In this document: piece after piece, positions 906 to 50,759 of the stretch
Numbering within the stretch: position 1 is the stretch's first letter
Layout: each line of letters begins with the position of its first letter
NCBI GenBank assembly: GCA_964035575.1
Contig: OZ037840.1
Location: 806,001 to 870,000 of the forward strand
Reading direction: 5' to 3'
DNA: 64,000 nucleotides
Source of the DNA: Rhynchopus sp. YZ270_cl-10
Taxonomy: Eukaryota
The notes under the pieces: model-generated
What the model was told of the DNA's origin: nothing
The model's database searches: none
What the model saw: the letters and a program-made list of their open reading frames with translations, nothing else
Translations under genes and position numbers: made by a program

Positions 906-1175
906 GTTTCTTTTCCTTCAGATGTGTGTGCGCGAGAGGCGCATTTCATCTTCCAAGTTTTTTCTTTCTTTTCTGTGGATGGTGTGTTCCAAAACAAAAA
1001 GGTACCCCAGGGTACGCTCAGAGTCATTTGGATGATTGTTATTGTTATTTCAATGTAAAATCAAGGTGGCTACTCAAGAGAGTAGCGATAACATACAAAA
1101 AAAAAAACAAATGACTGATGAATAGACCAAAGAATAATCTAATCAGACTAAGCAAATGAGAGGCTTAGGTTCATC

Positions 1176-6600: not shown

Positions 6601-9498
6601 ACGCCGTTGCTGAACGTGATGTTGATCTCGCTGCTGGTGTGGGTGATCTTTGGCATCATGGGTGTGCAGCTTTTTGCGGGGAAGTTCCACCGCTGTTCGC
6701 TCAACGAGTATGGCGACATGGATGCGATCACCTTCCGCGTGGACTGCCTCGACATCGACAAATGTTCCGGCGACGACGGCGAGCCCTGCAGGTGGCTGAA
6801 CTACGTCTCACACTTCGACCACCTGCCTGCAGCGTTCCTGAACCTCTTTGAGGTGGCGTCGCTTGAAGGGTGGGTCGACGTGATGAACCTTGGGATTGAC
6901 TCCGTTTCGTACGACGAGGCGCCGAGACGGAACAACAACCGGTGGATGGCGCTGTACTTTTTGATTTTTGTTGTGTTTGGCGCCTTTTTCATTATCAACA
7001 TGTTTATTGGCGTGCTTATTGACACATACTACCAGGAAAAGGAAAAGGCTTCCAGCACGGGTGGAATATTTCTGAATGATCGGCAGAAGCTGTGGGTCAC
7101 ACATCATACTAAGATGCTCAACATTATGTCAGCCACGAATCGCGAGGCGGTGACGAGACGCCAGCCACGTGACAGCTTTCTTTTCAAACTGATGACCTCT
7201 TCTGCCTGCGACGTATTCATCACGGGGTGCATCATCCTCAACGTCCTGCTCATGGCCACAGAGCACTATCCTGGGGGAGTCTGGCTGGACGTTCTGCACA
7301 TCATTAACTTAATCTTCTACGGTATATTCTTGCTGGAAGCAATTCTGAAGAATCTTGCATTAGGACCAACAGAGTACTTCAAGGATATGTGGAATAGGTT
7401 CGATATGTTCATCGTGTGCCTGTCCACGGTGGGCGTAATAATGGAGTTAGTGTTGACAGCAAGCCCCGCAGTAAGTATTTTCCGGATTCTGCGTCTGGCC
7501 CGCCTGCTGCGCATGGTGAAGAAGGCAAAGGGCATCAAACGCATCCTGCGCACGCTGCTGCTCTCCCTCCCCTCAATGATGAACGTGGCGGGGATCCTCT
7601 TCCTCATGTTCTTCGTCTACGCGGTGCTCGGTGTGAAGCTCTTCGCAAAGCTGCGGCGTGGCGGGCCCGACGATGCGATGGGGCGGTACGCAAACTTCGA
7701 GAACTTTGGGTTCTCCCTTTTGCTTCTCCTCCGCATGACGACAGGCGAGGCGTGGCAGTCCGTTCTCAAGGAGGCCTCTGTGGAGCCGCCGCACGCATGC
7801 TCCGAGCACCTCGGGAACTGCGGGCATCCCTTCATCGCGGTGGTCTACTTCTGCTCCTTCACGCTTGCGGGGATGTACGTTCTTCTCAACCTTTTCATTG
7901 CTGTTATCTTGGACGCCTTTTCACAGTCCAACGAGGAAGGCGTTTGCACAGACGAATACATGGAGCGCATCAAATACTGCTGGGACGATGTCAGGGAAGA
8001 CGACGCCGACGGCGTCGACCCTAGGAACCTTTACAGCTTTTTAACCGCTATCGGACCACCCTTGGGGATGGAAGTGGACTCTTTAGAATCTGATCTGGAA
8101 GCCTTCATTGCACCTATGGACCTCGAAGTGTGCCCAGAGACGGGCCTCATCTTGCAGGTAGAGTTGATCCCAAAGCTCTTCAAGATGCGCTATGGCCAGT
8201 CCCTCCCTGACGACCTGCAGGAGCACCTCACCGCCAAAGAACGTGAGCACATCACCCTAGGCCGCCAGGTGACCGGAGTGTCGCTGAAGCAGCAGCACTC
8301 TAATGTGGAGTTGAGTGTCCTCCCTTCGTACGACGCTGCCTTGTTGGGGGGGCCGAACACAGACGGTGAGCAGAAGACACATAGACCCAGGAGGTTGACA
8401 GTCACGCTGCCTGACGAAGAAGAAAGCACCTTCCCCGGCACGCCGTTGGGGGTAAAGGAAAGCAGCGCAAATGGGGGGACGACCTACACGGCCCCCTCGC
8501 TGCTGCTCTCTTCCGCTTCCACTGCGTTGCTGGAGGCTCCTGTGCAGACCGCTCCACGACGTGACCCTCATCGCACACCACACCCATGGGTCTCTCAAGG
8601 GGTCTGGCCAGATGGCGGCATAGACAGGAGGAATGTTACCTTACATAAGCCCCCTCTGTTAGGCGCGTCATTAGGGTTCAAGGTAAACCCAGATACTGCT
8701 AGGGTGACTACGGTTGAAGAAGGGTCTGTCGCTGATGCGTCGGGGATCACTCCGGGAATGCGGTTGACCGGGGTCGATGGGGAGGTGGTGACGGCAGGGA
8801 ATATTGAGGCTGCGACGAAGGATATACGGTATGCAAAAAGCGCGGTGAATCTGGAGTTGGAGACGCCGGACCCTACTGATATGTTGATGGAGCGGTATGC
8901 GGGTCCAAACAAATGCCTGAACTTTTTGCAGCTAAGCGGAATGTGCACCGCCCTCGGTGTCAGCGGACCGAACAATTTAAAAACCTTCGAAGCAGTGTGC
9001 GCAGCAAAGGGTCTCAACCCGAGACAAGGTTTTGGATGGTCCGACACACACGAAATGATGTCCGCGCTCCCATACGAAGGCAGACGGCGTGTACTCCTCT
9101 CCCTAGGGCTGCTCCCTGAAGAGAGGGGGTTGGGCATGGCCAGCTCTGCGTCTCCACACCACAGCCAGGTGGTGCAGGAACACTGGGAGGAGGTGTATGA
9201 GTTGAAGTCGCTGTCCCCTGTGCAGCCGCTCCTGCGGCAGCAGCAGCAGCAGCATCCGTTGACGCACCCACTGCTGGCGCCTGCGGGGTCAGGTGCGGAA
9301 GGTCTGCCACACCATCGTCTCAGCCACAATGCATTAACAGCGAACAACAGACTGCTCGGCAAGTTTGAGCATGCTTTTATGGAGGTGCGGGATGGAGCAG
9401 GAGGAGGAGTGCACCACCACCATCACCACAACCACAACCCACACGGTGGATTTGCGGGTCCTGGCGATTATCTGTCTCGCTCATATGTCCCGTTGTGA
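3643..9498 (+). CDS. Four-domain voltage-gated Ca2+-type (Cav/Nav family) channel alpha subunit with an EF-hand pair in the I-II loop and a C-terminal PDZ-like domain
   Basis: 1951-aa intronless ORF with four S4 helices (e.g. LRAFRLLRPLK, FRTFRALRVLRLAK). Pore loops TLEGW/TGEDW/SLEGW/TGEAW give an EEEE filter. EF-hands DKDGGGELDKEE and DTDGGGTVSLEE. PDZ-like segment LGFKV...VEEGSVADASGITPGMRLTGVDG. Confidence 0.96.
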   Translation: MEYQSHPLKASDLQQNNVGYEDNDASSSASTKMTVFVEEWGDGARNWVRSVILLNPWFERFWLLIIIANCVVLAMEDPTDKDCETERCKFTKIADYVFTNLFVVEMVLKLIGYGTFRRHDSYLRDVWCLIDGLIVVSGVIAFLLDVIFSASGPALTGLRAFRLLRPLKAIQSFPAVRILIQSILASLPKLGDVFVLYFFFVLVMGIISLQQWKGSLSVHCATEESYQAALLEDNDSLVELAEDGRVCTNSSYFHVGGHLCDFGYVCVRHGGNPEGGLLSFDNIGVAALTLFVALTLEGWTDAMYETMDATTYFAAFFWVILVIFGAFFILNLTIVIITEAFEMKQYEQKTSAFRAIDKDGGGELDKEEVRRLLKKLNGQDPSEEELDKVFTEMDTDGGGTVSLEEFLEYAEKHAATVGAALTKGRPGATGMMTSVKQVASKLPLLGNVKGAVERATEDLGEREEKRAPWRDRIYQVVEPTGLETTMPVANRLFDRTVMVVIILNTIALAIEHHGQPDEMTTVLEVFNYIFTIFFALEAAIKIIGLGIMGYVRDKFNIFDFIVSLLSVVGLFGVVGNVSVFRTFRALRVLRLAKQVPLLQRWIGILLNSMKGAAVLTSLLMLVVFIVALLGMQLFGGNFCHLDEDFDANAAGLTDAERGTGRGCGGVPRSNYDDLASALMTTFQILTGEDWNKIMYNGMRAAGDWVSVYYVLYYMLGNYMMLNLFIAVLLNSREMTDSSSSITEAPGDDDPLDMPASPATASPATLSKAISDDPASPKVEWQKLCDDTNTDHNEAASPVADAAVVLGRRNMGYQDAIDRKEGPKRRLPDWLNELVESERSLLVFSKDNVIRQKMLWIISTTAFEAVVLLCILVSTVTLALENPVRPPDHPQELLLAQVNFVMVWVFLTECFFKVVGMGFVLHKTSYLRSEGWNILDFVIVCVSLLSLVIPGGNSLEFIKIMRTLRPLRFINKSEGMKVVVQALVKSITPLLNVMLISLLVWVIFGIMGVQLFAGKFHRCSLNEYGDMDAITFRVDCLDIDKCSGDDGEPCRWLNYVSHFDHLPAAFLNLFEVASLEGWVDVMNLGIDSVSYDEAPRRNNNRWMALYFLIFVVFGAFFIINMFIGVLIDTYYQEKEKASSTGGIFLNDRQKLWVTHHTKMLNIMSATNREAVTRRQPRDSFLFKLMTSSACDVFITGCIILNVLLMATEHYPGGVWLDVLHIINLIFYGIFLLEAILKNLALGPTEYFKDMWNRFDMFIVCLSTVGVIMELVLTASPAVSIFRILRLARLLRMVKKAKGIKRILRTLLLSLPSMMNVAGILFLMFFVYAVLGVKLFAKLRRGGPDDAMGRYANFENFGFSLLLLLRMTTGEAWQSVLKEASVEPPHACSEHLGNCGHPFIAVVYFCSFTLAGMYVLLNLFIAVILDAFSQSNEEGVCTDEYMERIKYCWDDVREDDADGVDPRNLYSFLTAIGPPLGMEVDSLESDLEAFIAPMDLEVCPETGLILQVELIPKLFKMRYGQSLPDDLQEHLTAKEREHITLGRQVTGVSLKQQHSNVELSVLPSYDAALLGGPNTDGEQKTHRPRRLTVTLPDEEESTFPGTPLGVKESSANGGTTYTAPSLLLSSASTALLEAPVQTAPRRDPHRTPHPWVSQGVWPDGGIDRRNVTLHKPPLLGASLGFKVNPDTARVTTVEEGSVADASGITPGMRLTGVDGEVVTAGNIEAATKDIRYAKSAVNLELETPDPTDMLMERYAGPNKCLNFLQLSGMCTALGVSGPNNLKTFEAVCAAKGLNPRQGFGWSDTHEMMSALPYEGRRRVLLSLGLLPEERGLGMASSASPHHSQVVQEHWEEVYELKSLSPVQPLLRQQQQQHPLTHPLLAPAGSGAEGLPHHRLSHNALTANNRLLGKFEHAFMEVRDGAGGGVHHHHHHNHNPHGGFAGPGDYLSRSYVPL

Positions 9499-9916
9499 GT
9501 GTGAAGGGAGGGGGGCAGCCCGGAGAGGGGGGCTAGAGAGCGTGAAAAGGCGATGGGGTAGGTGGACACAGCGTAGTCAAAGGCAAGCTCGAATTGATGT
9601 TATTTTTGTTTTTTTTTTTTTTTTTTTGTGCTGGATGGGGGAAAGGGAATATTTCACAAATTAGGGTTGTAAATGAATGTATTGGGTGGGGGTGGGTGTG
9701 GGGGGGGAGGGTATGGGGCCTTTCGTGTGTTGTTGTGTCATTTTTTTTGGTTCAATCTTGATTGGGATTCCGTGTCATGTCCCCCTTTTATTAGGTGTTC
9801 GTGTCCGCGAGACACTTATTCACAATCTCTATTCGTATTTCAAATCAACTTTATTATTGTGTCGGCGTATGTGAACAAAAGGCGTTTTCACAAATTTTCA
9901 ACTTTTTTTTTCCCCC

Positions 9917-10067
9917 AGATGTTTACCTCGAAAAATGGATGTACAGCTGCATTGGTTTGGGGGGTCCACCCCACGGTGCACCAGTCATGCCAAGGTACAC
10001 TGTCACACAAGAGGGCTGTTGTATTTCAAGTCAACTTTTTGTAGGTGACTCAGCACATAAAGCTTAA
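9917..10067. repeat. Dispersed ~150-200-bp repeat family ending in the GACTAAGC..GCTTAGGTTCATC hairpin; other copies ~13534-13715, 28280-28410, 45440-45620
   Basis: Shared GTACCAAGGTRCACTGTTCACGAGAGGG..GTATTTCAAGTCAA core in four places. Confidence 0.75.
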
Positions 10068-13318: not shown

Positions 13319-13897
13319 TTTTTCTAGAATTTCGTGAATGAGAGAGGGAGGCGAGAGGCTTAGGGCCATCTTACAAAACTTTTCTTTCTTTTTTCGAGCT
13401 GTCGCAAGAGTGATTTGTGAATAATCTGTGGATTACGAAAAAGACAAATTTTAAATTTTTAAAATATCTGGCTTCTCTGTTGGTTGGCTAAGCGACGAAA
13501 CGCTTCATCTCTACTAACCCTTTTTTAAAATCCACAGATGTAAACCACGAAATAGACGTAGGACCACATGGTCGGGGACCCATAGTGGTGCACTGCTCAT
13601 GTACCAAAATACACTGTTCACGAGAGGGCTTTTGTGTTTCAAGGCAATTTTGTTTAAAAATAAGATAAGGTGACTAAGCACGAGAGGCTTAGGATCATCT
13701 TATAAACTTTTCTTTGTTTTTGTTTCCCTTTCTTTTTAAAAACGTGCACGGAGAAGCACATTCACCTTTTCAAGTTTTTTTTTCTTTGTTGAAGTATTTC
13801 TCAAAAAATAAAGGTAAGACCAACCCCTGCTTTCTCATTTGTGTCTATTTTGGAGGTTTTTTGCTTTTTGTGAATTTCTGCACAACGCCCACGCTAG

Positions 13898-21049: not shown

Positions 21050-21744
21050 TAAAGGGGGGGCCCAAATAAGTTTACCCCCAAATAATAGCTATTTTCCCAA
21101 ATAACTTTTTTTTTTCTCAGATTTTGGGTGCCGAAAAAGTTACCGAATAACTTCGCCCCCTCTCACCTCCTTTTTTATTTTTCAAAATTTTCCCCCAAAC
21201 TGATAGTGTACTATATAAAATGGCGCCGCAGGCGAAAAAAATTTATGGTACGGTGTAAAAAGCTAGTTTTTTACACCACAGATATAATCATCTAGGCGGC
21301 AGCCACGCTGGAGAAGGAAGTCTGGGGCGAAACAGATTTAAAGCAGCATCATCATTCGGGTGGTCGGGTCTTCTGGGGTCTTTACCAAACTACAAAACAG
21401 GAAAACAGAAAATAAGAGTTGACCCTCCCGCCGACTCCCGACTTTTGGACCCCCAACCCCCGACCTCTGGTGCTGTCCTGCTACTGTGTACTATGAGGAA
21501 ATTGATCAAAAACGAGAACTTGTCCATTTTGGCAAATTGACCCCACCACTGGCCGGACGGATTCCAAAAATGCAAATACCGGTGTCTAAAAGCTCCACCA
21601 AGTTGGCAACGAGAAAAAACCCTGTTTTCAGTGCCCAAATAAGTTTACCCCCAAATAACTTAGGTTCCAAATAACTTTTTTTTTTGCCGCGATTTTGGCT
21701 TTTCAAAGTTACCGAATAATATCGTTATTTGGACCCCCCCTTTA
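21050..21744. mobile_element. Non-autonomous TIR element (695 bp), no TSD visible
   Basis: TIR TAAAGGGGGGGCCCAAATAA / TTATTTGGACCCCCCCTTTA (1 mismatch). CCAAATAA subterminal repeats at both ends. Confidence 0.8.
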
Positions 21745-24865: not shown

Positions 24866-26318
24866 ACAAAAAAGAATTCAATTATGGGGGTGATTCCTTA
24901 AGAGAGGTTGATTTGATTGTGTTTTTGTGTTTTTTTTTTGGTTCACTTTAGTTAGTTGAATCTTATCGGGGGGGTTTTTTTTTGGTGTGTTTCACTGTAA
25001 ACGGAAAATGGAAAAAGAGAGGTTTGTCGGTAATTAAAAAAGGAACTGATGTATTAGGTAATCTTTACCTAGTATTGAAAAGTGTGGTTCGAAACAAAGG
25101 AAAAAACGCTTTATCTAGGTGTGTCTCATGAACAAAAGACTGCGGTCTTCTGGTGATTAGGAGCTTTGTTGTTGTTGGTATTGTTAAATTGCTTGGAGCA
25201 GTGAGTTACCTCGGCGTGTGTTGCTGCAGGTGTGCAATCTCTTGCTTTGGTGCTTTCATCAGATGGCTGGCACCGTCCGTGGGTCAGTTGGAGGTGCCTG
25301 CATCAGCAAACGATTATTTTTGTTGCATTTTTTGGATCCCATTTGCATCCACCTTTCCCCTTCCATAAAAAAAACCCCAAATCGGTTCACCCGGGTTTTT
25401 TCAAAAACCGGTAAAGCGGGAAATCAACCCCTGGTTTTGGCGATTTTTTTTTGTCTTTTGTGTGCACAGTGATGCACACAGTCATCTTCTTTCAAAATTC
25501 TTTTCAGAACGTGGTCAGAGGCAGTACCAGGGTCAAAGTGCCTGCACTAAACCCGCCTACACTGTTAGGCAGTCTCTAAAAAAGCAGCACGCTTGTTTTT
25601 GAGTAACACAAAAAGACCACCCAAAAATAACCAAAACGCGAACAGAACAAAATATTTGATTTTTTTTTTAAACCAATCAATCCTATCGCTATCCTCCCTT
25701 GCCAGCATGCACTACTTTGTTCAATCATACACAGCAAAACCCCCCAAAGGCGTACCGTTAGCGTGGCGTGCAAGAGAGGAGTGTGTAGACGGGAAGGGGG
25801 GATAAAACCTGTGTAAAAACTGCCGGTCTCGACACACTGGGGTTGTGCCAATCTCTCAAAAAAAAAAAAAAACCCCCCCCCCGTTTTTTTCCAGCTCTTG
25901 AAGGCTTTTTTTTTTGATATATTATTGTTGTTCACAGGATGTGCGTGAGACACGTTCATCTTTCAAAAAATTCTCTGTTGAAGCTCAGAAAATTTCAGTC
26001 GATCCGTATTGATACATAGCTTCGTCGCTTTTTTTTTTCTGGCAGTGTTTGATTTTGATTTGATTTGATTTTTTTTTTTTTTTGTGAAAACAGATGCACC
26101 CACACTGCCTTGTTGTGGATACAATGAATGTGGGTTTGCCGTCTGTCCTCTGAATTAGCAGAGTGTGCTTCGTTTCGTATGTTTTTTTGTCGTTTATTTT
26201 CTCGCCATGTTCCCCCACTCCCACTCCGCTTGTTGTGTTGGTCGCTTGAAAACTATCAATTTTAAGCCTTTGTTCGTCACCTGGTGATATCTTTTCAAAG
26301 TGACTAAGCACGAATTTT

Positions 26319-26657
26319 TTTTTTTTGAACATGATCCACTTTTATTTTTGCAATTTTGATTTTTTCATTCTTTTACAATGTAGGTTTCGAAAACTGTCTG
26401 GGCCTTGAGCGACAGCGGAACACTAACTACAAGTCCACAGAGGGTCATGCACTGATGAAGTCCACCTCTGTTTACAACTAATGTATGCGTTTAGGACTGA
26501 AACATGGACTTGTGGTACAGATGTACCACCCTACAAAAACTTTTGAATATGCATATTTACAAAAAAACAAAAACAAAACAAAAAGGATCCAAAAATACAA
26601 CAAAAAAGATTGATGAATAACCAATGTTCAAAACATTAAGTAATCTAATCAGACTAA
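26319..26657 (+). repeat. 339-bp direct repeat, copy 1 (contains a hammerhead ribozyme)
   Basis: Appears identical to 27899-28237 (offset 1580). Confidence 0.95.
26426..26516 (+). ncRNA. Hammerhead ribozyme candidate with a permuted/pseudoknotted topology; predicted cleavage after GUA at 26485
   Basis: CTGATGA 26452-26458 and GAAA 26499-26502. Stem II AGTCC/GGACT, stem III ATGT/ACAT, stem I ATGCA/TGCGT. Extra helix ACAGAGG/CCTCTGT. Outer stem ACTACAAGTCCA/TGGACTTGTGGT. Confidence 0.82.
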
Positions 26658-27898
26658 CCCCTGTGATACCGCGTCCTAGACGGTCTGTTGGTCGCAGCAT
26701 TTTGTTTGCAACAAGCAGGCAGCCACATAAAACGTAGGAAGTGGCTTTTTTCTGCTTCCAGTAGTAATAAGACCATGGACGTTTTATATAGTTGAATAAA
26801 AATATAAAAAAATATGTGTTCAACCTGGCGGACGAGCGGCTTAGAAACAGATACGCCAGTCCATGAATGCCAGAACATCAATCAAACTTTTCATTCAAAA
26901 GACTTTTTCCTTTTTTTATTTTTTTGAAACAAAACACCGATGAAGACGAACCTGCTGTTATCCAGTGAACGGGTTCCACGAAACAAAAAGTATTCATGTC
27001 TCGCTTCAGTGAACGCGGGGATTTTTGTCTCGCGTACTAATTACGTTGAGAATAACCACGAACAAAGTGTGCCGCAACATTTTTTGCGAAGAGGATATAC
27101 CCGTACACCAAATATCCATTTTCACCTTTTTTTCCTTTTTTTACCTTTTTTTACGGTCAGCCCGGATAATACCGCTACATACTTGGGGAAAGATGTACAG
27201 GCTGTACCCCGAATAACTTTTGTGTACCTTCAGCAACACAAAAAGCGCAAAAATAAGATACACTCATTTTTCTAAGCTTAGCCTGACATGTGGCAAACAA
27301 GAAAACATTGCAACAAGTTGGCGACTATTAAATATCACCAACATGCACCTTTGTTCATCCAAGATAAAAAAAACAAAAGAACCAAACAGATGTAAGCAAT
27401 CAAGACAGCGCTTCTGCATAACAAATGATAGAGTCGATGTCGATAGCTAACTTTTATTTTTTACTTCGTGCCTGATAGACAAGCAATGGCGAGTATGGGC
27501 AGCCAACCCATTCCGACCAAGGGCAAGCTTGGGCGATGAACCCATTAAGACCCACAGGGCGAGCCGGGATATATACCCGAGCCGACCCTGCCCCCAACCC
27601 CCAACCCCCTGCCGAGCCGAGCCGAGCCGAGCGAGTGTGCCGAGCCGAGCCGAGCAGAAAAGACTTGATCAACCAGAGTTACAAAGTTTCTTCATAAAAA
27701 AAGCTAAAAAAATGGTTGAAGATTAAAATGTACTAACAACCTGCAAACCACCTGTGTCACTATTATGCTGACTATCGACCCACGTGGCGAGTCAGTAGTG
27801 GCGTTATATTTGACCTTTTTTTAACAAAGTACCCTGCTATATGCAGAGTAACTGCCTTGGATGAGGTGAGCTACGATCATCCGAAAATATAAAACAAG

Positions 27899-28237
27899 TT
27901 TTTTTTGAACATGATCCACTTTTATTTTTGCAATTTTGATTTTTTCATTCTTTTACAATGTAGGTTTCGAAAACTGTCTGGGCCTTGAGCGACAGCGGAA
28001 CACTAACTACAAGTCCACAGAGGGTCATGCACTGATGAAGTCCACCTCTGTTTACAACTAATGTATGCGTTTAGGACTGAAACATGGACTTGTGGTACAG
28101 ATGTACCACCCTACAAAAACTTTTGAATATGCATATTTACAAAAAAACAAAAACAAAACAAAAAGGATCCAAAAATACAACAAAAAAGATTGATGAATAA
28201 CCAATGTTCAAAACATTAAGTAATCTAATCAGACTAA
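27899..28237 (+). repeat. 339-bp direct repeat, copy 2
   Basis: Appears identical to 26319-26657. Confidence 0.95.
28006..28096 (+). ncRNA. Hammerhead ribozyme candidate, second identical copy; predicted cleavage after 28065
   Basis: Same sequence as 26426-26516. Confidence 0.82.
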
Positions 28238-29191
28238 GCACGAAAGGCTCAGGTTATTTCTCATAATGTTTGGTCCATTTCAGATGTAAACCACGAAAAA
28301 TGGATGTAGGACTGCATGGTTGGGTGACCACCCCCCGGTACAGCCGGTCATGTACCCAAGGTGCACTGTTCACGAGAGGGGGTTGTATTTCAAGGTCAAT
28401 TTTTGTTTTGTCCATTTCAAAAAACCTCAAAAACACCAGGGCTTTCTTTGGACTATATCCTGGGACAGAGCCTATTTAACACAACCCCCAGCCAATTCCG
28501 CCTGAGAACAGGAGTCTACTGGAAGTTGTCCTACACGACGTGGTCCAGGACCAATTTCACTTGTCATGGTGACAACTGAAATGACAAGTGACATTGATGA
28601 GGCACCTCGTGCACTGTGTGTGTCTGGGTGACAGACCCACACCTTGCCACGTCGTGCGACACCACAAGCTTCGCCTCCGTCGCCACCGTGTTTAAATAAG
28701 GCCAAAAAAAGGGAGGGGGGGTTTTTTTTTATAGCATAGCCTTTGTTTTGTTCAATCTACGTTATGTCCGTTTCTTCTCTCTACCCCCCTCTATCATCTC
28801 ACTGTGCTGCGATTGCCCAAAAAAAAACAAAAAACAAAAAAAAACCCCTAGTCGGCTTGCTTCACAATGAGTTATCCCATGACAAATTATCCCTGTTTCG
28901 GTGACTGACGAAGAGAGTTGGATAGGTACTAGGGTGACTCAACGTAGACTGCGACAAATGGAAGTAAGCTGGCGGGAGGGGGAGGTGGGTGTACTGTTGC
29001 AACACGTGATATTTTATTTTATTTTTCGAATTTTTTTTTTTCAAAAAAAAAAAAATAGAAAATACAATGGGGCATCCTTAGACCCCTTGGGTGACATTCT
29101 GTGGCCAACCTATAGCGGGGCCATAGTCGATGCAACAAAAAAACCCCACAAAAAAAATCCAAACAAAAAAATATTGTTGTAACGAAGTCGG

Positions 29192-29448: not shown

Positions 29449-32400
29449 ATGGGATCCGGAGCGTCGAAGCCTGAAAAGGACGAGATTGCAAAGGGAATTA
29501 CTGGGAAGGAGAGGCCCGTGGACGCAGTCGACAGCGTGGACGGGAGGACAATGCTGCACAGTGCTGTGCTTGCGGGAGACGTGGAGGCAGTGCGGTTTCT
29601 TGTGGAGAACGGGGCAGGGAACGTGCGTGACAGGGACGGGAACGTGCCGCTATGGTATGCACTGCAGCACAGGGACGCGGATGTGCGGGGGCGACTTGAG
29701 GCGGAGCTGGGGGCGCATGCAGCAGAAATCCTTGTGGAGGTGGAGGATGCTGTGCAGGTGTACCTCACTCACGGTGTCGCCACAACAACGACAACGACAG
29801 CAACACCAAGAACAACAACAACAGGTGTGGCGGTGGAACGGAGCAGTGGTGATGCAACGACAGCACCTCTTACTGACCCTCACATGGACATGGCGAAAGA
29901 CACGAAGACCTCGACTGAAGACAGGCACCTAGGAGAGGACGATCTTGACGGGGACACGGGTGCACTGCGGCACACAGACGGACGGAAGGTGGAGTGGCTG
30001 CGGAAAACAGAGGACAACAACAACAAGAACGGCAATGGAGGTGAAGACCTGCTGTGCTGGCTGCGTGGTCTGCCAAAGGTGGATCCGCCGTTGGGCTACA
30101 CAGACGAACACGTGCGGCACATGGAGGCGGGGTTCCGTGTGGTGTGCAAGCGTCTGCTGGAGGACATCAGAGGACGGAGGGAGGCTGCGGGGACACGTGG
30201 GCACGTGGAGGTGGAGGACTGGATGGCGGCACGCGACCCGTTTGAGCTGCTGCTGTCGGGGTTCCTGTTCACGTCTGACTGCGTGGAGTATGTGCTGGAC
30301 AGCGGCGGGGATGTTGTGTGCGACGAGGATGACGGGACACCACAGATTGCGAAAGGGCCTGACGGGAAGCTGCGGTACATCAAACTGACGGAGCGGGCTG
30401 TGCTGGACAACCACGGGAGTGCTGCTAATTCACAGTCGCTTGCGCTGTACATGACGATGAACACTGCGATGCGTGCTGTGGGGTGGCTGCCTGCGGTGAA
30501 GGAGTGGAAGGGGACACCTGAGAAGACAGCACCGAACGTGTTTGAGCTGTCGCCTGCACCCCCGCAGCTGCACGTGATTGCGACCTTTGCGCCGCTGATC
30601 CGTGGTCTGGACCGGCTGATTGGGAGCCGTCGGAAGCAGCTGCGGACTGTGTTCCGTGGGATCAATGTAAACGTGTCTGCGAAGTACGCGCTGGGGACGC
30701 ACGTTGTGGAACTGCTTCACGTCGACAACACTGAAGCGGGATGTGGCTCGGAGCTTCATGTACGGGAAGGGAGGCACGTTCTTTGTGGTGGTGGCGAAGG
30801 AGGGTGCTGCAGATGTGAAGTTCTCGTCTGTGTATGCTTCGGAGGACGAGCTGCTGTACACAGCGAACATCGAGTACCGGGTGCAGTGGAAGCTTTCGCC
30901 GACGTTACTGCGGATGATGGGGCTGCGCTTTGACGTGATTGTGATGCAGGAGGTGTGTGCGGATGCGGGTGTGGGTGTGGGGGAGACGAGTGCGGCTGAG
31001 CAGGTGGGTGCGCTGCAGGAGGTGATGGGACACACAGTCGCATTCTTCAAGGACTACCTTGCGCAGTACGTGGAGGGGCGTGTGGGTGACGACACGCGTG
31101 TGGATGAGTCGGAGACAAGTCCGCTGATGGAGGAGGTGCGGAGGTGGCTTCGTGCACGTGGAGGTGGGAAGCAGATGTCTGCAGTGTGCACACAGGCAGC
31201 AGCGCGCACAGAGCGCAAGCCTGATGTGGAGGCAAAAGAAGAAAGACAAGGGACGTGTGGTGTGCTGTGTGTGATCGGAGAAGGAGGGAGCGGGAAGACG
31301 TCTGCTTCGATTGCAATTCTGAGCGACCTTGCAACGTCTGCGAAGAAGAGTGAAGGCACCAGCAACGAAGACACAAACAGGAACAGGAACAGCGTGGTGA
31401 GTGATGTGACTGCGGATGCGGATGCGAAACCATACTTCCCTGTGTTTGTGGCGCTGCCGACTGTGAAGCGGCACCTGCTTGAGAAGGGAGGGCTGGACAG
31501 GTTTGTGCTGGAGTCGTTTGCGCTGCGGGAGGCGGACCGTGCGTACCTTGCGGAGACGTACGAAGTGGTTCTGGTGCTGGACTCGCTAGACGAGGTGGGT
31601 CTGACGCAGAAGAATGTGGGTGCTGTGGTGTCTGAGGGTGGCCTTCTGTGCCGGCACCCGTGGGTGGAGGCACACTGCAGCGTTATTGTGACTGTGCGTG
31701 GTGAGTACCTGAAGGGTGTGGACACGTCTCCGTCTGGTGTGTGTGGGGCTGGTGTGCGTGCTCTGTACATGCAGCCGTTCACAGAGGTGGATGCGAGAAC
31801 GTACATCAAGCGTGCAAACACAGCCTGGGAGAAGGAACACAAAGTGGAGCAGCCAGCCCACAAGGAAGAGTCTTCGTGCGTGAGGAGGACGTTGAGGGAC
31901 TTGTGCAGCTGCGGAACCCGTTTGTACTGCACATGGCGTGCCACGCGCAGTGCAGCGGGAAGGCTTCTGAGGAGGTGATCTACGAGACCTACCTGGAGAC
32001 GTGGACGAAGAAAGAGATGTCGTCTGGTGGTGCTGCTGTTGCTATTTCCGATGTGTCTTTGGAGGATGTGGTGCGTGCAGGGGAGCTTGTTGCATGCAGG
32101 ATGTTGGAGACAAACGAATGGCAGGGGACTGTGGGTGTGGCGTCGGAGGTTCTTGTGTCGCGGCACGGTGTGTGTGAGGCTGTGCGGGATGCGTGCTTCC
32201 GCTGCCTGCCGTTCCGGATTGAAGACTTGGGGGAGGAGCGGAGTGCGTTCACGTTCCGGCACAAGTCGCTTGGGGAGCACCTTGCAGCACGGCGGCTTGC
32301 ACGTGATCCAGCAGGGACACTGAGAACGCTGGTGCAGCGGAGCTTCAGCAAAGACTCGCAGCGTGTGCTTGGGTTCTTTGCGGCGCTGGTGTGTGGAGAC

Positions 32401-34644
32401 AGTGGGCTGTACGAACGTGCCTGCACAGTGTTGCTTGCGGCTGTGAAGGCAACACGCGGCAGTGGTGGAGGTGCAGGTGTTTGTGGGGAGGATGCTGTGA
32501 CAGCAGGGTCGAATGCAGCAGCACTGCTGGCACGTGCACGCATCCCTGTGAGTGGGGAGGACCTGAGCGGGATCCGTGTGTCGAACTGCGACCTGCGCGG
32601 GTCTCTGTTTGTGGAGACGGCGCTGACGGGCGCTTCCTTCTCGAACTGCTGGCTGGAGCACACTGAGTTCCACACCTGCGACATGGGTGGCACGATGCTG
32701 CCTGACTGCTCCCTTGGCACGCCACTTCCTGTACTGCAGAGTCATGCCTTTGGTGTGGCAGTGACACCTGATGGCAGTCAAATGGTAACCGGTGGCTATG
32801 ACGGCAGTGTACATGTGTGGAGCATGTCTTCTGGGGAAGAAGTCATGGTCTTGGAAGGACATTCGAACCACATAAAAAGAGTGACATTAACACCTGACGG
32901 CACCCACGTTATTTCGTGCTCTGTTGACAAAACTGTGCGTGTGTGGGGTATGCACACTGGGGAGGCAGTGTTCGTCTTGGAAGGCCACAAAGGTATTGTG
33001 GAAGAAGTGTCAGTCACTCCCGACAGTTCTAAAGTTGTTTCAATTTCTGCAAAAGATGGCATCCGTGTGTGGGATCTCTCGACGGGGATGGAAGTGCTGG
33101 CAATAAAGTCGCTCGGCATTCGCAGCATGGTTATTACCAAGGATGGAAGTCAAATAGTGACATGGTCCAAGGAGATGCTGTGCGTATGGGGTCTGGTCAC
33201 GGGGAAGCAGGAGATGCAGTGGCCTTGTTGTGTGGAGTCTTCGCATGCACTAGCAGTCACTCCCGATGGATGCCATGTCGTTTCGTGCACTGATGGCGCA
33301 CATCTTTGGAACCTCTCCACTGGGGCAGAGGTGATGGTGTTCCATGCCGACGCTGAGTTGACAGCAGTGGCAGTCACCCCCGATGGATGTCACGTGGTTG
33401 CTGGGTCCGGGAGCGGCACTGTGCACGTTTGGAGCATTTCGACTGGGAAGGAGGTGACGGTGTTGCAAGGGCACACCTCTCGTGTGAATGTAGTGACAGT
33501 GTCACCAGATGGATGCCACGTGGTTTCATGCTCCTGCGAAGACGGTACTGTTCGAGTGTGGAACATCGCGACCGGGAAGGAGACACCAGGTTTCGAAGGA
33601 TTCCCAGGCTGGTCTGTGGTAGTGGCCCCTGATGGATCTATCATTTCGTACGGTGGCAAAAGACACTCCATCTGGAACACATCCACCGGCAGGCAGACAC
33701 AGGTAGTCGAAGCAGGAATAATGCATAGCGACGATGTTGCTGCCGTGTCCCCAGCTGGCTCTCATGTAGTTTATTGCTCTTGCGGCGACGCTGGCGAAAG
33801 GAGAGCGTGTGTGTGGGACGTTGCGACGGGGAAAGTGCGGCCTTTGTGCACAGCTTCCAGTGAGTTTGCGGTGTTCTTGAAAAAGGTTGGAATACTTGAG
33901 TTCTTCGCAGTGTCTCCCGATGCATCTCACGTGGTGACCTTTTCAAAGGCTCCACAGGAGGAAGACACTTACTGTACGTATGTGTGGAGCATGCCGACTG
34001 GGAAGAAGGTGTCAGTGTATGAAGGAACTACTTGCCCTCCCAGCGGAGTGGTAGTGACTCCTGATGGAGTGCATGTGGTTTCGTACTTTGAGGATTACAC
34101 CGTACACATGTGGAAACTTCACACTGGAGAAGAGACGATGGTGTTCACAGGACATACTGAAGATGTCTCAGACGTGGACGTGACTCGCGATGGGTCTCGT
34201 CTTGTTTCATGCTCTTACGACGAAACTGTGCGTGTGTGGGATGTTGCCAGCGGGAAGGAAATCTTCACCTTGGAGTATGATCGTTCAGTATTACGAGTGG
34301 CACTGACACCTGATGGAGCTCACATGGTGTCGTTCTGTGACGGTTCTATGAGTGTGTGGAACATGACCACTGGTGAGAAGGTGGTAGTGATTACACCACA
34401 TTGTGGTTTGTACAACGTTGCTGTGAGCCCTGATGGACGCGAAGTGATCTGTGGTTGTGATGACCACACTGTGCGTGTGTGGAGCATCTGCACTGGGGAA
34501 GACGGCACGATTGATGGGTTGCGGCTGAAGAGAGTGATCGGTGTCCCTCCAACAGTTCCTCGTGCAGTTGGCTGTCGCAATGCTGATGCTGTGGAACCTG
34601 AACTTGCGAGACGGATTCTTTGTCCTGTCGAGGAGGAGGAGTGA
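29449..34644 (+). CDS. Ankyrin - ADP-ribosyltransferase - NACHT NTPase - pentapeptide - WD40 protein, split by two frameshifts (~30705 and ~31880); pseudogene or assembly error
   Basis: ANK GRTMLHSAVLAGDVEAVRFLVENGA. ART R-S-E motifs VFRG / FTSTT / EDELL. Walker A GEGGSGKT, Walker B VLVLDSLDE, and FRHKSLGEHLAA. Pentapeptide repeats. About 14 WD40 repeats (VAVTPDG...VRVW). Domains continue across ORFs 29449, 30704 and 31741. Confidence 0.88.
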
Positions 34645-37394: not shown

Positions 37395-37851
37395 TAACAC
37401 AAAAAAAAAAAAAGTTTCAAATTTCAAAAAAAACAAAAACCACCTTAGTTGGTACCCATGGTTTTTGCAAAACGAGCCCCTCAAGAACCCCTCACGAACC
37501 CCAGCAAGAACCCCGCAAAATGGGTCTCGAGATGAATATTTTGCCCTCTTTTGTTAGTGTTTTTTGGTTCTTTTGTTTTTGGTAGTACTAGTAGTATTTT
37601 TTTTGATAAATTTTCCACACCTCTCTCACGCAGAACATTTTCTCCCATTATTCTGATACGCTTCAGGGATCTGTTTTGTGCATTGGGGTGTGAGGCTCTC
37701 CTAGTCAAAAAAAAAAATTCAATTTCATTCAAAAAAAAAAGTGCGCAGATGCTTCCCAAAAAGAAATATTGCTCTACGCAGTTGTCGACACAACAAACGC
37801 ATCACATCACCTCCAGGCGCCCCTCCCTTCTTGGACTCCCTCCCACCCACT

Positions 37852-39075
37852 ATGGAAGTCCACATCGAGGAGACCAGCAGCGGTGCCACCTACACCGTCG
37901 TCGTTGGTACCGAGGACACCGTCCGCTGCCTGCGTGCCAAGGTGGCTGCAGCGACCTCCCCCTCCTGCCACACACACCCACCCAGCTCTCTCCCGGACGC
38001 ACCACCGCCACCCCTCCCGCACCTCCTCCTGCACGGCACGCCCCTCGGGGATGACGACACCCCCATCAGCACAACACGACTCTGCAGTGGCGACAGGCTT
38101 ACGGCAGACGTCTCCCCCATGGAGGTGGAGGAGGAGGAGGCTGCCTGTACGTGGAAGCACCCTGCACGATACGAGGCAGGAGGGGGTCTCATGGCGATGT
38201 CCCCCTGTGGAAGGTACTGTGTGCACACCGTGGTGGGGTGTGGCGTTCATATTGTCGATCTGGTGGCAGGAGAGAGTGTTGTGGTGGTGTCTGGAGATAA
38301 GAGCAATGTGGTTTCTTCGTTGGATGTGACGGAACACCACATTGTGTATGCAGTGTACGGAATGTCCCGAACAGAGGTCGCTGTGGTGGACCGGAGAACG
38401 CATTTGACCCTGCAGTCTCTGCATTGTGATAGCGCAGTGACGGCGTTGTCTGCGACGTCAGATGGAGTGTTTCTGGTGGTAAGCTGTTATGCTGGGATCT
38501 GTGTGTTCAATATCTTAACGGCAGAGTGCGTCAGAAAGAAGCGAGGGTATGGACACATTGCGACAGTTTCGCCGTGCAACCGATGGATCGCAAGCTGTGA
38601 TCGGCTGATTGATTTTGAGACATTGGAGCAGATACATCACTTGGGGCACACAGGCACCCCAATTCGAGCACCGGTGTTTTCACCAGAAGGGGATGTGGTG
38701 GCGATTCTGAATGGAGGTGTTGTGGATGTGTTTGCGACAAGAGACGGCACGCATCTGCATCGCACAGGGCACCGGCATATCATCTCTGCGGTGACGTTCA
38801 GTGCGGACGGAGTGTACCTCTTCACAGCCTCCTTTAACCAGGTGGACTCCTGGGTCACGGCATCCCACCTTGCCACCCACTCCCGCACACCCTTCTTATC
38901 GTGCACATCTTCTCTGTGTGGTCTAGCTGTCTCACGCGATATGCAGGTAGCATTGATCCTGGATAGGCAGAAGATCGACGTTGTCAGCAGACGTATCCCT
39001 GATACCAGAACTGCTAGCGTAAAGGATGCAAATAGCAGCAGCCAGGCAAGCAGCAGCGTCTGTCCATGCTGCTGA
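37852..39075 (+). CDS. Ubiquitin-like domain plus WD40-like beta-propeller protein, C-terminal CPCC; paralogue 1
   Basis: ATG chosen by alignment with the 40497 copy. MEVHIEETSSGATYTVVVGTEDTV..LRAKV Ubl-like start. Propeller repeats (MSPCGRY, FSPEGD, FSADG). Confidence 0.88.
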   Translation: MEVHIEETSSGATYTVVVGTEDTVRCLRAKVAAATSPSCHTHPPSSLPDAPPPPLPHLLLHGTPLGDDDTPISTTRLCSGDRLTADVSPMEVEEEEAACTWKHPARYEAGGGLMAMSPCGRYCVHTVVGCGVHIVDLVAGESVVVVSGDKSNVVSSLDVTEHHIVYAVYGMSRTEVAVVDRRTHLTLQSLHCDSAVTALSATSDGVFLVVSCYAGICVFNILTAECVRKKRGYGHIATVSPCNRWIASCDRLIDFETLEQIHHLGHTGTPIRAPVFSPEGDVVAILNGGVVDVFATRDGTHLHRTGHRHIISAVTFSADGVYLFTASFNQVDSWVTASHLATHSRTPFLSCTSSLCGLAVSRDMQVALILDRQKIDVVSRRIPDTRTASVKDANSSSQASSSVCPCC

Positions 39076-39682
39076 GAGGCCAGGGTATCATTTTAGGTGA
39101 CGAAAGAGAGTGCGGTGAAGGTTGTCTGATAAGCGTTCTTTTGGTACCTCCATTGCAGCCTCCCTGGAAGCCGTGTGCCAAATGAAATGTTCTGTCCTAT
39201 GTACACTTTTGGTAATATAAAAAAAACGGTTAAGACAATGCATGTCTTCAGACAGCTGTCGCTTCCCCGACCTCCGTAAAGTGCACATCGAGAGGAGATC
39301 GGGAGGCGATAGCATTAGCTAGTGAGCCCTCGTTTGGTGATACCAGGTGGGGAGGTGGGGAGTTTGGCTGGGGCGGTAGATCTGTTATGCATTAACACAA
39401 CAAACACAACACAACCCCCAGGCCCTTCTTGGACTCCCTCCCACCAGGGGTACCTGTAACGAGGGGGGTAAAAACGGCCCGGCCCCCGGCCCCCGGCCCT
39501 TGGTTATCAAATGGAGAAAATCACGTGTATGTATACACGGTATACACAACGCAACCTTGTGCGCGGGTTTTTGGGTCATTGTTGCCCACAAACGGGCCGG
39601 CATTTGCATTCCGGAATCCGTCCGGCCAGTGGTGGGGTCAATTTGACGAAATGGACAAGTTCTCGTTTTTGGTCAATTTTTG

Positions 39683-40015
39683 CAGTATACACAGTATACA
39701 CAGTATACACAGTATACACAGTATACACAGTATACACAGTATACACAGTATACACAGTATACACAGTATACACAGTATACACAGTATACACAGTATACAC
39801 AGTATACACAGTATACACAGTATACACAGTATACACAGTATACACAGTATACACAGTATACACAGTATACACAGTATACACAGTATACACAGTATACACA
39901 GTATACACAGTATACACAGTATACACAGTATACACAGTATACACAGTATACACAGTATACACAGTATACACAGTATACACAGTATACACAGTATACACAG
40001 TATACACAGTATACA
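39683..40015. repeat. (CAGTATACA)37 tandem repeat
   Basis: 333 bp of perfect 9-mer units. Confidence 0.97.
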
Positions 40016-40020
40016 CAATA

Positions 40021-40250
40021 CAGTACAGTACAGTACAGTACAGTACAGTACAGTACAGTACAGTACAGTACAGTACAGTACAGTACAGTACAGTACAGTA
40101 CAGTACAGTACAGTACAGTACAGTACAGTACAGTACAGTACAGTACAGTACAGTACAGTACAGTACAGTACAGTACAGTACAGTACAGTACAGTACAGTA
40201 CAGTACAGTACAGTACAGTACAGTACAGTACAGTACAGTACAGTACAGTA
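40021..40250. repeat. (CAGTA)46 tandem repeat
   Basis: 230 bp of perfect 5-mer units. Confidence 0.97.
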
Positions 40251-40496
40251 CAGTGTAAAAAAACTCAAAAATCCCTCTCGCGCCTTGGCGAAAAATGTTT
40301 TTTTTCAAAACCGGCTTTATTTGAAAGATTGAGATCCGCTGACCCCAAAAAACAAAATCGGCCCCAGCCAAGAATAGCTATACAAAAGCAGAATAACGGC
40401 GAGAGCATTTCCCACGTAATTTCTTAAGGGATTTTTCTCGGCCCAGAGGCCCGGCCCGCGGCCCCACGTTACAGGTACCCCTGCCTCCCACCCACT

Positions 40497-41708
40497 ATGG
40501 AAGTCCACATCGAGGAGACCAGCAGCGGTGCCACCTACACCGTCGTCGTTGGTACCGAGGACACCGTCCGCTGCCTGCGTGCCAAGGTGGCTGCAGCGAC
40601 CTCCGCCCCCTCCTGCCACACACACCCACCCAGCTCTCTCCCGGACGCACCACCGCCACCCCTCCCGCACCTCCTCCTGCACGGCACGCCCCTCGGGGAT
40701 GACGACACCCCCATCAGCACAACACGACTCTGCAGTGGCGACAGGCTTACGGCAGACGTCTCCCCCATGGAGGTGGAGGAGGAGGAGGCTGCCTGTACGT
40801 GGAAGCACCCTGCACGATACGAGGCAGGAGGGGGTCTCATGGCGATGTCCCCCTGTGGAAGGTACTGTGTGCACACCGTGGTGGGGTGTGGCGTTCATAT
40901 TGTCGATCTGGTGGCAGGAGAGAGTGTTGAGGTGGTGTCTGGTGAGAGGAGCAATGTGATCACTGCGTTGGGTGTGACGGAACACCACATTGTGTACGGA
41001 ATGTCCCGAACAGAGGTCGCTGTGGTGGACCGGAGAACGCATTTGACCCTGCAGTCTCTGCATTGTGATAGCGCAGTGACGGCGTTGTCTGCGACGTCAG
41101 ATGGAGTGTTTGTGGTGGTAAGCTGTTATGCTGGGATCTGTGTGTTCAATATCTTAACGGCAGAGTGCGTCAGAAAGAAGCGAGGGTATGGACACATTGC
41201 GACAGTTTCGCCGTGCAACCGATGGATCGCAAGCTGTGATCGGCTGCTTGATTTTGAGACATTAGAGCAGATACGGCGCTTTGGCGTGTCTATTCGAGAG
41301 TCCACTAGAGCACCGGTGTTTTCACCAGAAGGGGATGTGGTGGCGATCCCGAGGGGGAACTTTGTGGATGTGTTTGCGACCAGAGACGGCACGCATCTGC
41401 ATTGCACAAGACACGCGAACGTCATCTCCGCAGTGACGTTCAGTGCGGACGGAGAGTACCTCTTCACAGCCTCCTTCGACTCCCGGGTCATGGCATCCAA
41501 CCTCACCACCCACGCCTACGTCCGCACGCTCTTCTTCTCACATAGAACGTCTCTGTGGGGTCTAGCCATATCGCACGATATGCAGGTTGCGTTGATCCTG
41601 GATATGCAGAGTATCCACGTTGTCAGCAAGACCTCGTACACCAGAGGTCATCGCGTAGATGCAAATAGAAGCAGCCAGGCAAGCAGCAGCGTCTGTCCAT
41701 GCTGCTGA
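40497..41708 (+). CDS. Ubiquitin-like domain plus WD40-like beta-propeller protein, C-terminal CPCC; paralogue 2
   Basis: 403 aa. The first ~140 aa are almost identical to paralogue 1, with patchy divergence afterwards. Confidence 0.88.
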   Translation: MEVHIEETSSGATYTVVVGTEDTVRCLRAKVAAATSAPSCHTHPPSSLPDAPPPPLPHLLLHGTPLGDDDTPISTTRLCSGDRLTADVSPMEVEEEEAACTWKHPARYEAGGGLMAMSPCGRYCVHTVVGCGVHIVDLVAGESVEVVSGERSNVITALGVTEHHIVYGMSRTEVAVVDRRTHLTLQSLHCDSAVTALSATSDGVFVVVSCYAGICVFNILTAECVRKKRGYGHIATVSPCNRWIASCDRLLDFETLEQIRRFGVSIRESTRAPVFSPEGDVVAIPRGNFVDVFATRDGTHLHCTRHANVISAVTFSADGEYLFTASFDSRVMASNLTTHAYVRTLFFSHRTSLWGLAISHDMQVALILDMQSIHVVSKTSYTRGHRVDANRSSQASSSVCPCC

Positions 41709-47419: not shown

Positions 47420-48423
47420 CCCTTTATGGACCACGACCGATTTTTTCGATTTGCTAGGATCTTCTCTCCCATAGGTAAAATGAGATCCGATGCATATTTT
47501 TGATCGTACCTGGCCGCAATTGAAAGATTTTGAGCAGATCTTTCAAATGGAGCAGAAATCGAAATAAAATGAGAAAAATGGAAAATTGAAAATTGAGGAG
47601 AGCTGATATTTTTTTCTGAAAATTTTGAAGAAAAAAATTATTCCGGTTGCGTACCTGTTTTTTCGGTTTTCGAAAATGGCTTTATTTGAAAGATCGGTTC
47701 AAAATCTTTCAAAAGAAAAAAAAATCGATCAAAAAGTCCTAGTAGATAATGTCTCACTGCATGGAGAGAAGGTACCAACCAACTATATATACCGTAATTG
47801 TACAGAGGTAGGACAGTACAAAAGTTGGGGCTTTTGGGACTTTTGGCCAACTTGGCCTGGTGCTGAACAAAGGTGAACGCCGCATCCCACGCACATGTAA
47901 TCTGTTTTCAGACGCCTGTTTCCCAAGCAAGAAGAAGTTGTCGACCAACACCCTCCTGCCAGTGTCTCTGTACCTTGACCGTGTTGATATAGATTTTCTG
48001 TACAATGTCCCTCAAAAGACAAAATGCAATAAATACACGGAGAAGAGGCACATCCAGTTCAGGGTCAGGAACTGCAACTACGCGTGTTACTTTGCCCAGT
48101 CGCGGGTATTTTCCATTATTTTGGTTTCGTTCTGAAGACCGTACAAAATGGTTCCCTGCACACCAAAGTTTGAATCCTCTGATGACTCAAGCGCGTCAGA
48201 ATGGTACATTATTCCCAAAAAATGACCCAAAATACCCTATTATGTGATAATGCCGGGTGTGGATGAGAGGGGATGAGAGCGTCAAAAAAAATCGAATCTT
48301 GCGTCTTTTGAAAGATTTCGCACAAAATCTTCTCATTTAAAAAAAAAAATCTTCAAAAAATCCTAGTGGAAGCCAATTTAGGTGGTTGCGTGGACATATA
48401 TGTCCCCTCTGGTCCTTAAAGGG
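47420..48423. mobile_element. piggyBac-like non-autonomous element (1004 bp)
   Basis: TTAA at 47416-47419 and 48424-48427. TIR CCCTTTATGGACCA / TGGTCCTTAAAGGG (13/14). Confidence 0.92.
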
Positions 48424-50591: not shown

Positions 50592-50688
50592 TCCCCCCCC
50601 CCCCCCTCTCTCTTTTTTATTATTCCAAAGTGTACTCAAAAAAACAATGACTCGACAAAAGTGTTCATGTTTTTACTTTTTATTTTAA

Positions 50689-50759
50689 GCCCTTGCTCCT
50701 TCTGATGAGCGCGGTCGAAGGGCACTTTTCCTGGTCAGGGAGCAGACCGCCGAAACCAG
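50689..50759 (+). ncRNA. Hammerhead ribozyme candidate with the same permuted topology; predicted cleavage after GUC at 50736
   Basis: CTGATGA 50702-50708 and GAAA 50752-50755. Stem II G(C)GCGGTC/GACCGCC, stem III CTGGT/ACCAG, stem I TGCTCCTT/AGGGAGCA. Extra helix GCCCT(T)/(A)AGGGC. Confidence 0.87.

Follow-up and report, generated by a model that had tools for sequence, protein, structure and literature searches.

What placed two identical, ribozyme-bearing direct repeats around a stretch of non-coding DNA in the nuclear genome of Rhynchopus, and did an RNA intermediate take part? We examined this question within a 64-kb window, i.e., the whole 64,000-nt stretch of DNA analyzed here, whose numbering is used throughout. 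The answer we consider probable, as far as assembled sequence can tell, is that 1917 bp of non-coding DNA were inserted as a non-autonomous retroelement, which would derive from a self-cut and probably circular RNA copied by a borrowed RT.

Layout of the insertion and its target

An exact repeat search returned the same coordinates for the 339-bp direct repeats as the earlier note (26319–26657 and 27899–28237, + strand, 100% identical, offset 1580; a maximal exact repeat), and the sequence flanking each repeat differs on both sides. The parts of the element and of its surroundings are as follows.

26302..26314, + strand: left TSD copy, 13 bp, GACTAAGCACGAA; 5′ arm of the target hairpin and part of its loop
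26315..26326, + strand: run of T12 at the left junction, where the equivalent position of repeat 2 has T8; putative end of cDNA synthesis
26319..26657, + strand: direct repeat 1, 339 bp; the portion of the unit that is present twice
26658..27898, + strand: non-coding interior, 1241 bp, 43% GC, single copy in the window
27899..28237, + strand: direct repeat 2, 339 bp; same sequence as repeat 1
28232..28244, + strand: right TSD copy, beginning with GACTAA, the 6-nt microhomology in which it overlaps the end of the repeat
28245..28262, + strand: 3′ half of the interrupted target hairpin
1110..1151, + strand: short diverged match to the right end of the element, abutting another target-hairpin copy at the same base

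Counted from 26315, the insert totals 1917 bp, i.e., 1.21 units, with GC contents of 33% and 43% (the latter for the interior); the difference between T12 and T8 may be a homopolymer length error. Two further claims of the earlier note held: the element contains no credible ORF (the longest frames reach 115 aa from stop to stop, and a 111-aa ATG frame is without Pfam match), and its repeats lack TG..CA ends. Within the 64-kb window there is neither a second full copy nor a homologue of the interior (best nhmmer E 0.92). Rfam gave no match at gathering level in the window and four chance matches in the element at E up to 10, and the window contains no tRNA. A GC-rich patch inside the element (27540–27660) combines GCCGA repeats with a TATA-like GATATATA and may be an internal promoter. 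At least half of the words of the stretch occur in six sequencing runs from three studies, one of which may be the source, in an index that records presence only; 12 of its 16 rows contain the stretch or part of it, none of them an RNA run, and only the six with the larger share were considered.

The TSD word is the longest shared by both junction regions and occurs only twice in the window, with about 4e-5 chance matches of 13 bp expected; the duplication measures 13 bp including the 6-nt microhomology and 7 bp without it. Its position 13 is A in both copies and G in the three other hairpin copies of the same subtype that were compared, so the duplication is of this very locus. The 13-bp TSD thus points to a real insertion, which argues against an assembly slip and makes unlikely the simple local duplication that had earlier been entertained. 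An assembly artefact, or an ordinary local duplication around a chance motif, would find some backing in the complete identity of the repeats, in the homopolymer-rich sequence and in junctions that are read from an assembly; it would have to accommodate the locus-specific base in the 13-bp TSD, flanking sequence that differs at both ends of each repeat, a ribozyme that by far exceeds chance expectation (see below) and a further junction of this type at 1146, and we regard it as very improbable.

The TSD word also forms one half of a bulged hairpin of which the window has several copies, and the insert breaks this motif, which is continuous in other copies. A strict descriptor of the hairpin found seven copies on the + strand and none on the − strand (0.2 in shuffles), and a loose one found 12 and 1, respectively (1.1 in shuffles); of the 12, 10 lie clear of long ORFs. 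When the empty site is modelled, it proves to be a copy with some wear, which folds yet fails the strict descriptor. Across eight hand-picked copies, 88.5% of cells pair and many changes replace A-U by G-U. Two of the 12 pairs are altered on both sides in this set, and covariation is weak, its score being reached by 18 of 500 shuffles and the count of doubly changed pairs by 334 of 500. Rfam holds no match to the family. Overall, the recurring bulged hairpin is the apparent target of the element.

Members of this family span ~45 nt on the + strand, show G-U and some compensatory changes, and are often followed by a pyrimidine run. The first base of the inner stem lies at 1070, 13674, 46536, 51572, 52075, 52634, 53237, 54185, 55607 and 55871, and worn copies lie at 13341 and 51737. 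Other repeats of the window were noted as well. The region 46186–55670 is a 9-kb gene-free field of modular 500–600-bp repeats, arranged head-to-tail and partly truncated, each unit of which contains the target hairpin; it may represent another non-autonomous element family, and no hammerhead fold was found in it. A 434-bp near-perfect inverted repeat (50103–50536, about 92%) is MITE-like or a foldback. A dispersed module of ~125 bp (9916–10042, 13535–13655, 28281–28408 and 45445–45537; 78–83% identical) adjoins hairpin copies at two of its four places. The copy at 28281–28408 resembles the 3′ half of the ribozyme by eye, a likeness for which nhmmer gives no support.

Two junctions lie at the same base of a target hairpin, one of them short and old. 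At the latter (1110–1151), 11 nt match the end of the element exactly just before GACTAA, compared with at most 3 nt at nine other GACTAA sites outside the repeat ends. The match is short and A-rich: one of 284 random window stretches equals it in local alignment, and nhmmer assigns it an E of 0.013. As a free alignment it is therefore marginal, and its position at the same target base is what counts. On the thin support of two junctions, we read it as an old, 5′-truncated insertion. Since it keeps only the right end, copying would start at the right end, and the target would be a preferred one.

A wholly different route to a shared 13-bp word would be a non-autonomous DIRS-type (VIPER/TATE-like) element, whose DNA circle a tyrosine recombinase would have integrated at a 13-bp core common to circle and target. 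Diplonema papillatum is reported to have TATE-like ORFs (PMC10161547), and shared-core recombination would duplicate the core too. The signature of VIPER and TATE (DIRS order), split direct repeats together with the lack of a TSD, is nevertheless not what this locus displays: split repeats (A1..B1 A2 B2) are absent, VIPER and TATE are described as making no TSDs (PMC12278014), and just 6 of the 13 TSD bases are present inside the unit. This reading is hardly credible to us. We conclude from the assembled sequence that the insertion is genuine, recent and non-autonomous, and that it carries a permuted hammerhead of a rare kind.

The predicted ribozyme in the repeats

The earlier note had placed a hammerhead on the + strand of each repeat. 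Its location and predicted cut sites were borne out; what had been missed is that the fold is of the non-circularly permuted type CSG. Both strands of the window were scanned with a descriptor that permitted any order of the three hammerhead strands. Three matches were returned, i.e., the two repeats and a weak one inside a gene, and none lay on the − strand anywhere in the window. The weak match (CSG order, at 12854) falls within an LRR gene, has a 3-bp stem III and was taken as chance.

In the repeats, the core words start at 26452 and 28032 on the + strand, the cleavage site is GUA in both, and the strand order runs from CUGAUGA through the substrate strand to GAAA. C-S-G is the only order that gives a full core and stems of at least 4, 4 and 3 bp within 150 nt. 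A standard type I or III fold breaks down at the 1.1–2.1 pair, and a circularly permuted three-way junction (type I/II/III) does not form within one motif. The parts are listed below for copy 1, together with the second copy and the RNA that cutting of both would release.

26429..26513, + strand: type-CSG hammerhead copy 1, predicted cut after 26485; architecture compared by eye with the supplement of PMC10085705
28009..28093, + strand: type-CSG hammerhead copy 2, predicted cut after 28065
26429–36/26506–13, + strand: closing helix P0, 8 bp, stacked on stem III
26437–43/26465–71, + strand: stem I/II helix, 7 bp, connecting stems I and II at their far ends
26447–51/26486–90, + strand: stem I, 5 bp
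26452–58, + strand: core CUGAUGA
26459–63/26494–98, + strand: stem II, 5 bp
26481–84/26502–05, + strand: stem III, 4 bp
26491–93, + strand: UUA linker, 3 nt, from stem I to stem II
26499–26502, + strand: GAAA
26512..26529, + strand: 7-bp hairpin directly 3′ of the ribozyme, sharing two bases with the end of P0
26486..28065, + strand: predicted cut-to-cut RNA monomer, 1580 nt, deduced from the cut sites

The predicted structure exceeds by far what chance would provide. It pairs 29 bp within 85 nt, with a single G-U. No any-order hammerhead with stems of at least 5, 5 and 4 bp appeared in 20,000 dinucleotide shuffles of the repeat, a fitting substrate strand survived in 59 of 100,000 trials when the 30 nt enclosed by stem II were shuffled, and the I/II helix and P0 arose jointly in 3 of 200,000 flank shuffles. 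Pair probabilities reach 0.84 for the I/II helix and 0.93 for P0 in short context, and 0.47–0.66 in longer contexts. The catalytic stems are minor in nested folding models, which cannot score pseudoknots (stem III 0.07–0.13, stem II 0.08, stem I 0.0), and as isolated duplexes stem I (−3.2 kcal/mol) and stem III (−0.3 kcal/mol) are weak. The geometry would also fit: the UUA linker puts U1.7 beside the A before stem II, and these two positions touch in solved full-length hammerheads (PMC11875169). Taken together, the ribozyme has all sequence-level features of type CSG and is predicted to cut itself.

Because the two known copies are identical in sequence, they could also exchange strands, the core and GAAA strands of one repeat cutting the substrate strand of the other, so that only transcripts with both repeats would be cut. 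Penelope and amphibian hammerheads do cut as dimers, and the GAAA and substrate strands overlap here as the palindrome ACAUGU, comparable to the palindromic stem III of the metagenome hammerhead described below. Such an exchange is nonetheless unlikely in our view: a CSG fold acting in cis depends on the very I/II helix and 3-nt linker present here, the partner repeat is 1580 nt away, and the published CSG-1 and CSG-2 were cut singly as short transcripts (PMC10085705). It concerns the ribozyme only and is compatible with the reading of the locus that we prefer.

Pattern scans for covarying relatives of the ribozyme returned none in viral contigs and no credible one among 11 metagenome-contig loci. 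One of the latter (L004) looks similar, but by eye it is open protein-coding sequence with only a weak substrate strand. L006–L011 are variants of one coding-like stretch, and no fold was obtained for L002, L003 and L005. L001 contains an ordinary type I hammerhead (L001:136–205) with a palindromic stem III, a 20-nt loop II and possibly a pseudoknot to the 5′ tail. Rfam gave no match to the hammerhead of the element, and it also misses the ordinary long-loop type I fold of L001 (E up to 1).

A proposed route from host transcript to insertion

The hammerheads share their strand with the genes around them. Pfam domains were found in 10 of the 18 ORFs scanned, all on the + strand, so that host transcription would read the ribozymes in sense. 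In D. papillatum, genes form one-strand clusters that are probably co-transcribed and trans-spliced (PMC10161547); by inference, the + strand of the element may be transcribed without a promoter of its own. The ORFs of the window are long and apparently intron-free, and its genes look intron-poor, unlike those of D. papillatum. A mitochondrial carrier encoded in the window has its nearest relatives among diplonemids, being 74% identical to that of Rhynchopus euleeides, 62% to that of Diplonema japonicum and 59% to that of D. papillatum, in keeping with a diplonemid host near Rhynchopus.

Several other genes and repeats of the window are worth recording. A four-domain ion channel of 1951 aa (3643–9498) is apparently intron-free and has EF hands and a weak PDZ match. 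At 29449–34644 (+ strand), ankyrin, G-rich and WD40 ORFs overlap in successive frames and may belong to a single gene that is frameshifted or split by an intron. Between two duplicated WD40 genes (37741–39075 and 40497–41708; 90% identical) lie arrays of 9-bp and 10-bp units (39593–40314), and related arrays occur in inverted orientation at 2602–2854 and 21482–21585. Two cysteine-rich ORFs without Pfam match (56340–62803; 988 and 1028 aa) possibly encode one surface protein.

The scheme we propose starts from what can be seen in the sequence, i.e., the repeats, the TSD, the 6-nt microhomology at the right end, the CSG fold, the hairpin target and host genes on the same strand. Specifically, host polycistronic transcription would read the element in sense, both ribozymes would cut after GUA to free a 1580-nt RNA, and a host ligase would close this RNA into a circle. 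The RT/endonuclease of an autonomous non-LTR element would then nick a copy of the hairpin repeat, the freed target end would pair with GACUAA in the RNA and thereby prime target-primed reverse transcription, and the RT would copy 1.21 rounds before halting in the U run. Finally, repair would leave the TSD. The ends that had previously been predicted for the monomer (26486 and 28065) agree with the cut sites recovered here, after 26485 and 28065.

Which template could yield more than one unit? Beyond each of the two cut sites the insert continues for about 170 nt. A linear monomer cut at both ends cannot supply this excess and so cannot have been the template, while a circle, or else an uncut or jumped template, can supply the insert. 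More-than-unit cDNA copied off a circle is the published retrozyme model (PMC7761336). Folded as a circle, the 1580-nt monomer reaches −373.6 kcal/mol (z −3.2 against 20 shuffles), which lends mild support to this model and may reflect local hairpins.

The same element with the same polarity could also have arisen without a circle, from an uncut or partly cut read-through donor transcript or through an RT jumping between two linear RNAs, with the ribozyme merely trimming RNA ends. CSG ribozymes are slow (PMC10085705), so uncut read-through RNA could equally be the template, and a donor of the same layout already contains every base of the insert. Likewise, Penelope-like elements, non-autonomous families included, typically have a truncated copy of the 3′ end in front of the full unit, and RT jumping has been proposed for the partial tandems of Penelope (both PMC8557442). 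Yet the origin or regeneration of the first repeat is unexplained unless there is a jump or a circle, and the layout predicts exactly two cuts one unit apart. We consider this route rather unlikely and retain the circle as the probable template.

Polarity can be questioned as well, since the T12 run beside the TSD also fits a poly(A) retroposon on the opposite strand. Such a SINE-like element would have been copied from the A run at the left, its right end would have been joined by microhomology, and the hammerhead would act on antisense or host transcripts. In line with this, T12 stands directly against the TSD and is longer than the internal T8, and microhomology like that at the right end is frequent at the 5′ ends of non-LTR insertions. 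In addition, the 13-bp TSD is near the 12 bp given for L1Tc (PMC6765202). Against it, the ribozyme is on the + strand, with no − strand hammerhead in the window and no HDV-like match on either strand; the older fragment at 1110–1151 retains the right end and not the T-run end; and the target end that adjoins the T run offers no T for priming on poly(A). A minus-strand retroposon is thus quite unlikely in our assessment, and the + strand reading, with copying from the right end, is the one we carry forward.

The enzyme would have to come from elsewhere, as no RT was found among the 18 ORFs scanned in the window. By guesswork, we give a restriction-like-endonuclease (RLE) LINE roughly an even chance of being the partner, a Penelope-like element a distinctly smaller one, and anything else a small remainder. 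An RLE LINE is at least as good a candidate as Penelope in this lineage: the majority of RLE LINE clades insert at specific targets (PMC4640811), and diplonemids have an expanded set of SLACS-type RTs (745 in D. papillatum and six in the column Rhum; PMC10161547). The D. papillatum paper and its seven text supplements do not name Penelope (PMC10161547), which carries little weight as TEs were not rigorously curated there, and for trypanosomatids the source consulted gives only four clades, PLE not among them (PMC12278014).

Relation to known retroelements and type-CSG ribozymes

The element would work like a retrozyme yet belongs to neither published family. The earlier note had called it retrozyme-like, and this stands as regards hammerheads in direct repeats, a non-coding interior, a predicted 1580-nt monomer and a recent insertion; membership of a published family falls on ribozyme type, TSD length, unit size and the lack of a PBS. 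With metazoan non-LTR retrozymes (PMC7229834, PMC7761336), it shares a non-coding sequence, one hammerhead per unit, head-to-tail arrangement, GC below 50%, the absence of a PBS and a TSD longer than 4 bp. These elements, however, carry type I ribozymes in units of 150–450 bp and occur in animals (PMC7229834), compared with type CSG, a 1580-bp unit and a euglenozoan host here, the unit being three to ten times too long for a metazoan retrozyme. Moreover, circles have been demonstrated for the metazoan elements and are predicted for the Rhynchopus one, which in turn has an apparent fixed target.

Plant LTR retrozymes (PMC7761336, PMC6765202) share the outline of the element: a non-coding centre is enclosed by a pair of direct repeats of ~350 bp, each with a ribozyme. 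Their ribozyme is of type III, in contrast to type CSG here, and their TSD is 4 bp long, compared with 13 bp (7 bp without the microhomology). They also have a tRNA-Met PBS, whereas none follows the first repeat here (no TGG start on either strand). Plant LTR retrozymes further have a PPT and a Ty3-gypsy partner (PMC7761336, PMC6765202); upstream of the second repeat of the Rhynchopus element, 12 of 15 nt are purines, but this sequence is A-rich like much of the element.

Non-autonomous Penelope-like elements (PMC8557442, PMC4209133) likewise place a truncated 3′-end copy ahead of the full unit, have a hammerhead inside the repeat and tend to insert at other repeats. A partial tandem of 1.21 units forming a pseudo-LTR with a hammerhead is indeed present here, although the ribozyme type differs from that of Penelope-like elements. 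The likeness would thus extend to layout only, and kinship would need the partner. Target-specific RLE LINEs (CRE/SLACS, R4, NeSL, HERO; PMC4640811, PMC12278014) resemble the element, whose target base is apparently fixed, in using one base of a repeated target and in making a TSD; they differ in that there is no ORF here and in that the target is a dispersed hairpin and not a spliced-leader gene. The 5′ HDV-like signature of INGI, RIME and SIDER was found on neither strand, by Rfam or by a loose descriptor (0 matches; run without a positive control).

Literature searches joining hammerhead ribozyme, Penelope-like and kinetoplastid returned nothing, most subscription papers lying outside their scope, and no hammerhead retroelement in diplonemids or kinetoplastids was found among papers judged mostly by title. 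We tentatively suggest, as a possibility that falls short of probable, that the Rhynchopus element represents a third kind of retrozyme: site-specific circular-RNA retroelements that are CSG-cut from diplonemid polycistronic pre-mRNA and that an enzyme of LINE or Penelope type inserts at a single position of a dispersed hairpin, with priming by a 6-nt match between RNA and target. If this is true, the CSG fold gains its first natural job and host.

For the ribozyme itself, the closest comparison is with the two sequences on which type CSG was based. The order was named, as a non-circularly permuted one, by Eckert et al. 2023 (PMC10085705), the only paper using the term that we found in a literature that mostly excluded subscription papers; a search joining hammerhead, circular permutation, novel topology and pseudoknot returned none. 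CSG-1 and CSG-2 are two similar soil-metagenome DNA sequences of unknown host; in vitro, both were cleaved where predicted, with rates of 0.004 and 0.03 per min, and their authors grade the evidence for biological relevance as weaker for type CSG than for type SGC (PMC10085705). As described there, they resemble the Rhynchopus ribozyme in several respects: the blocks follow the order CUGAnGA, cleavage site, GAAA and the core is intact; stems I and II are tied together at their far ends by a helix (7 bp here, 8 there); a short linker opening with UUA leads from stem I into stem II; and position 1.7 is U. Differences are found in the stem sequences, which are unrelated, in stems I and III (5 and 4 bp here, 6 and 5 there), in the stem III linker (9 nt here, 2 there), in the cleavage site (GUA here, GUC there) and in the extra 8-bp P0 of the Rhynchopus element. 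The setting differs too, i.e., a TSD-framed insertion in a eukaryote nuclear genome here and soil metagenome DNA there. Type CSG is missed by standard hammerhead searches and by Rfam, and in print it amounts to two similar sequences; to these the Rhynchopus locus adds an unrelated, perfectly paired example that was kept twice in a fresh insertion, which supports the CSG fold as a natural one and links it to retrotransposition.
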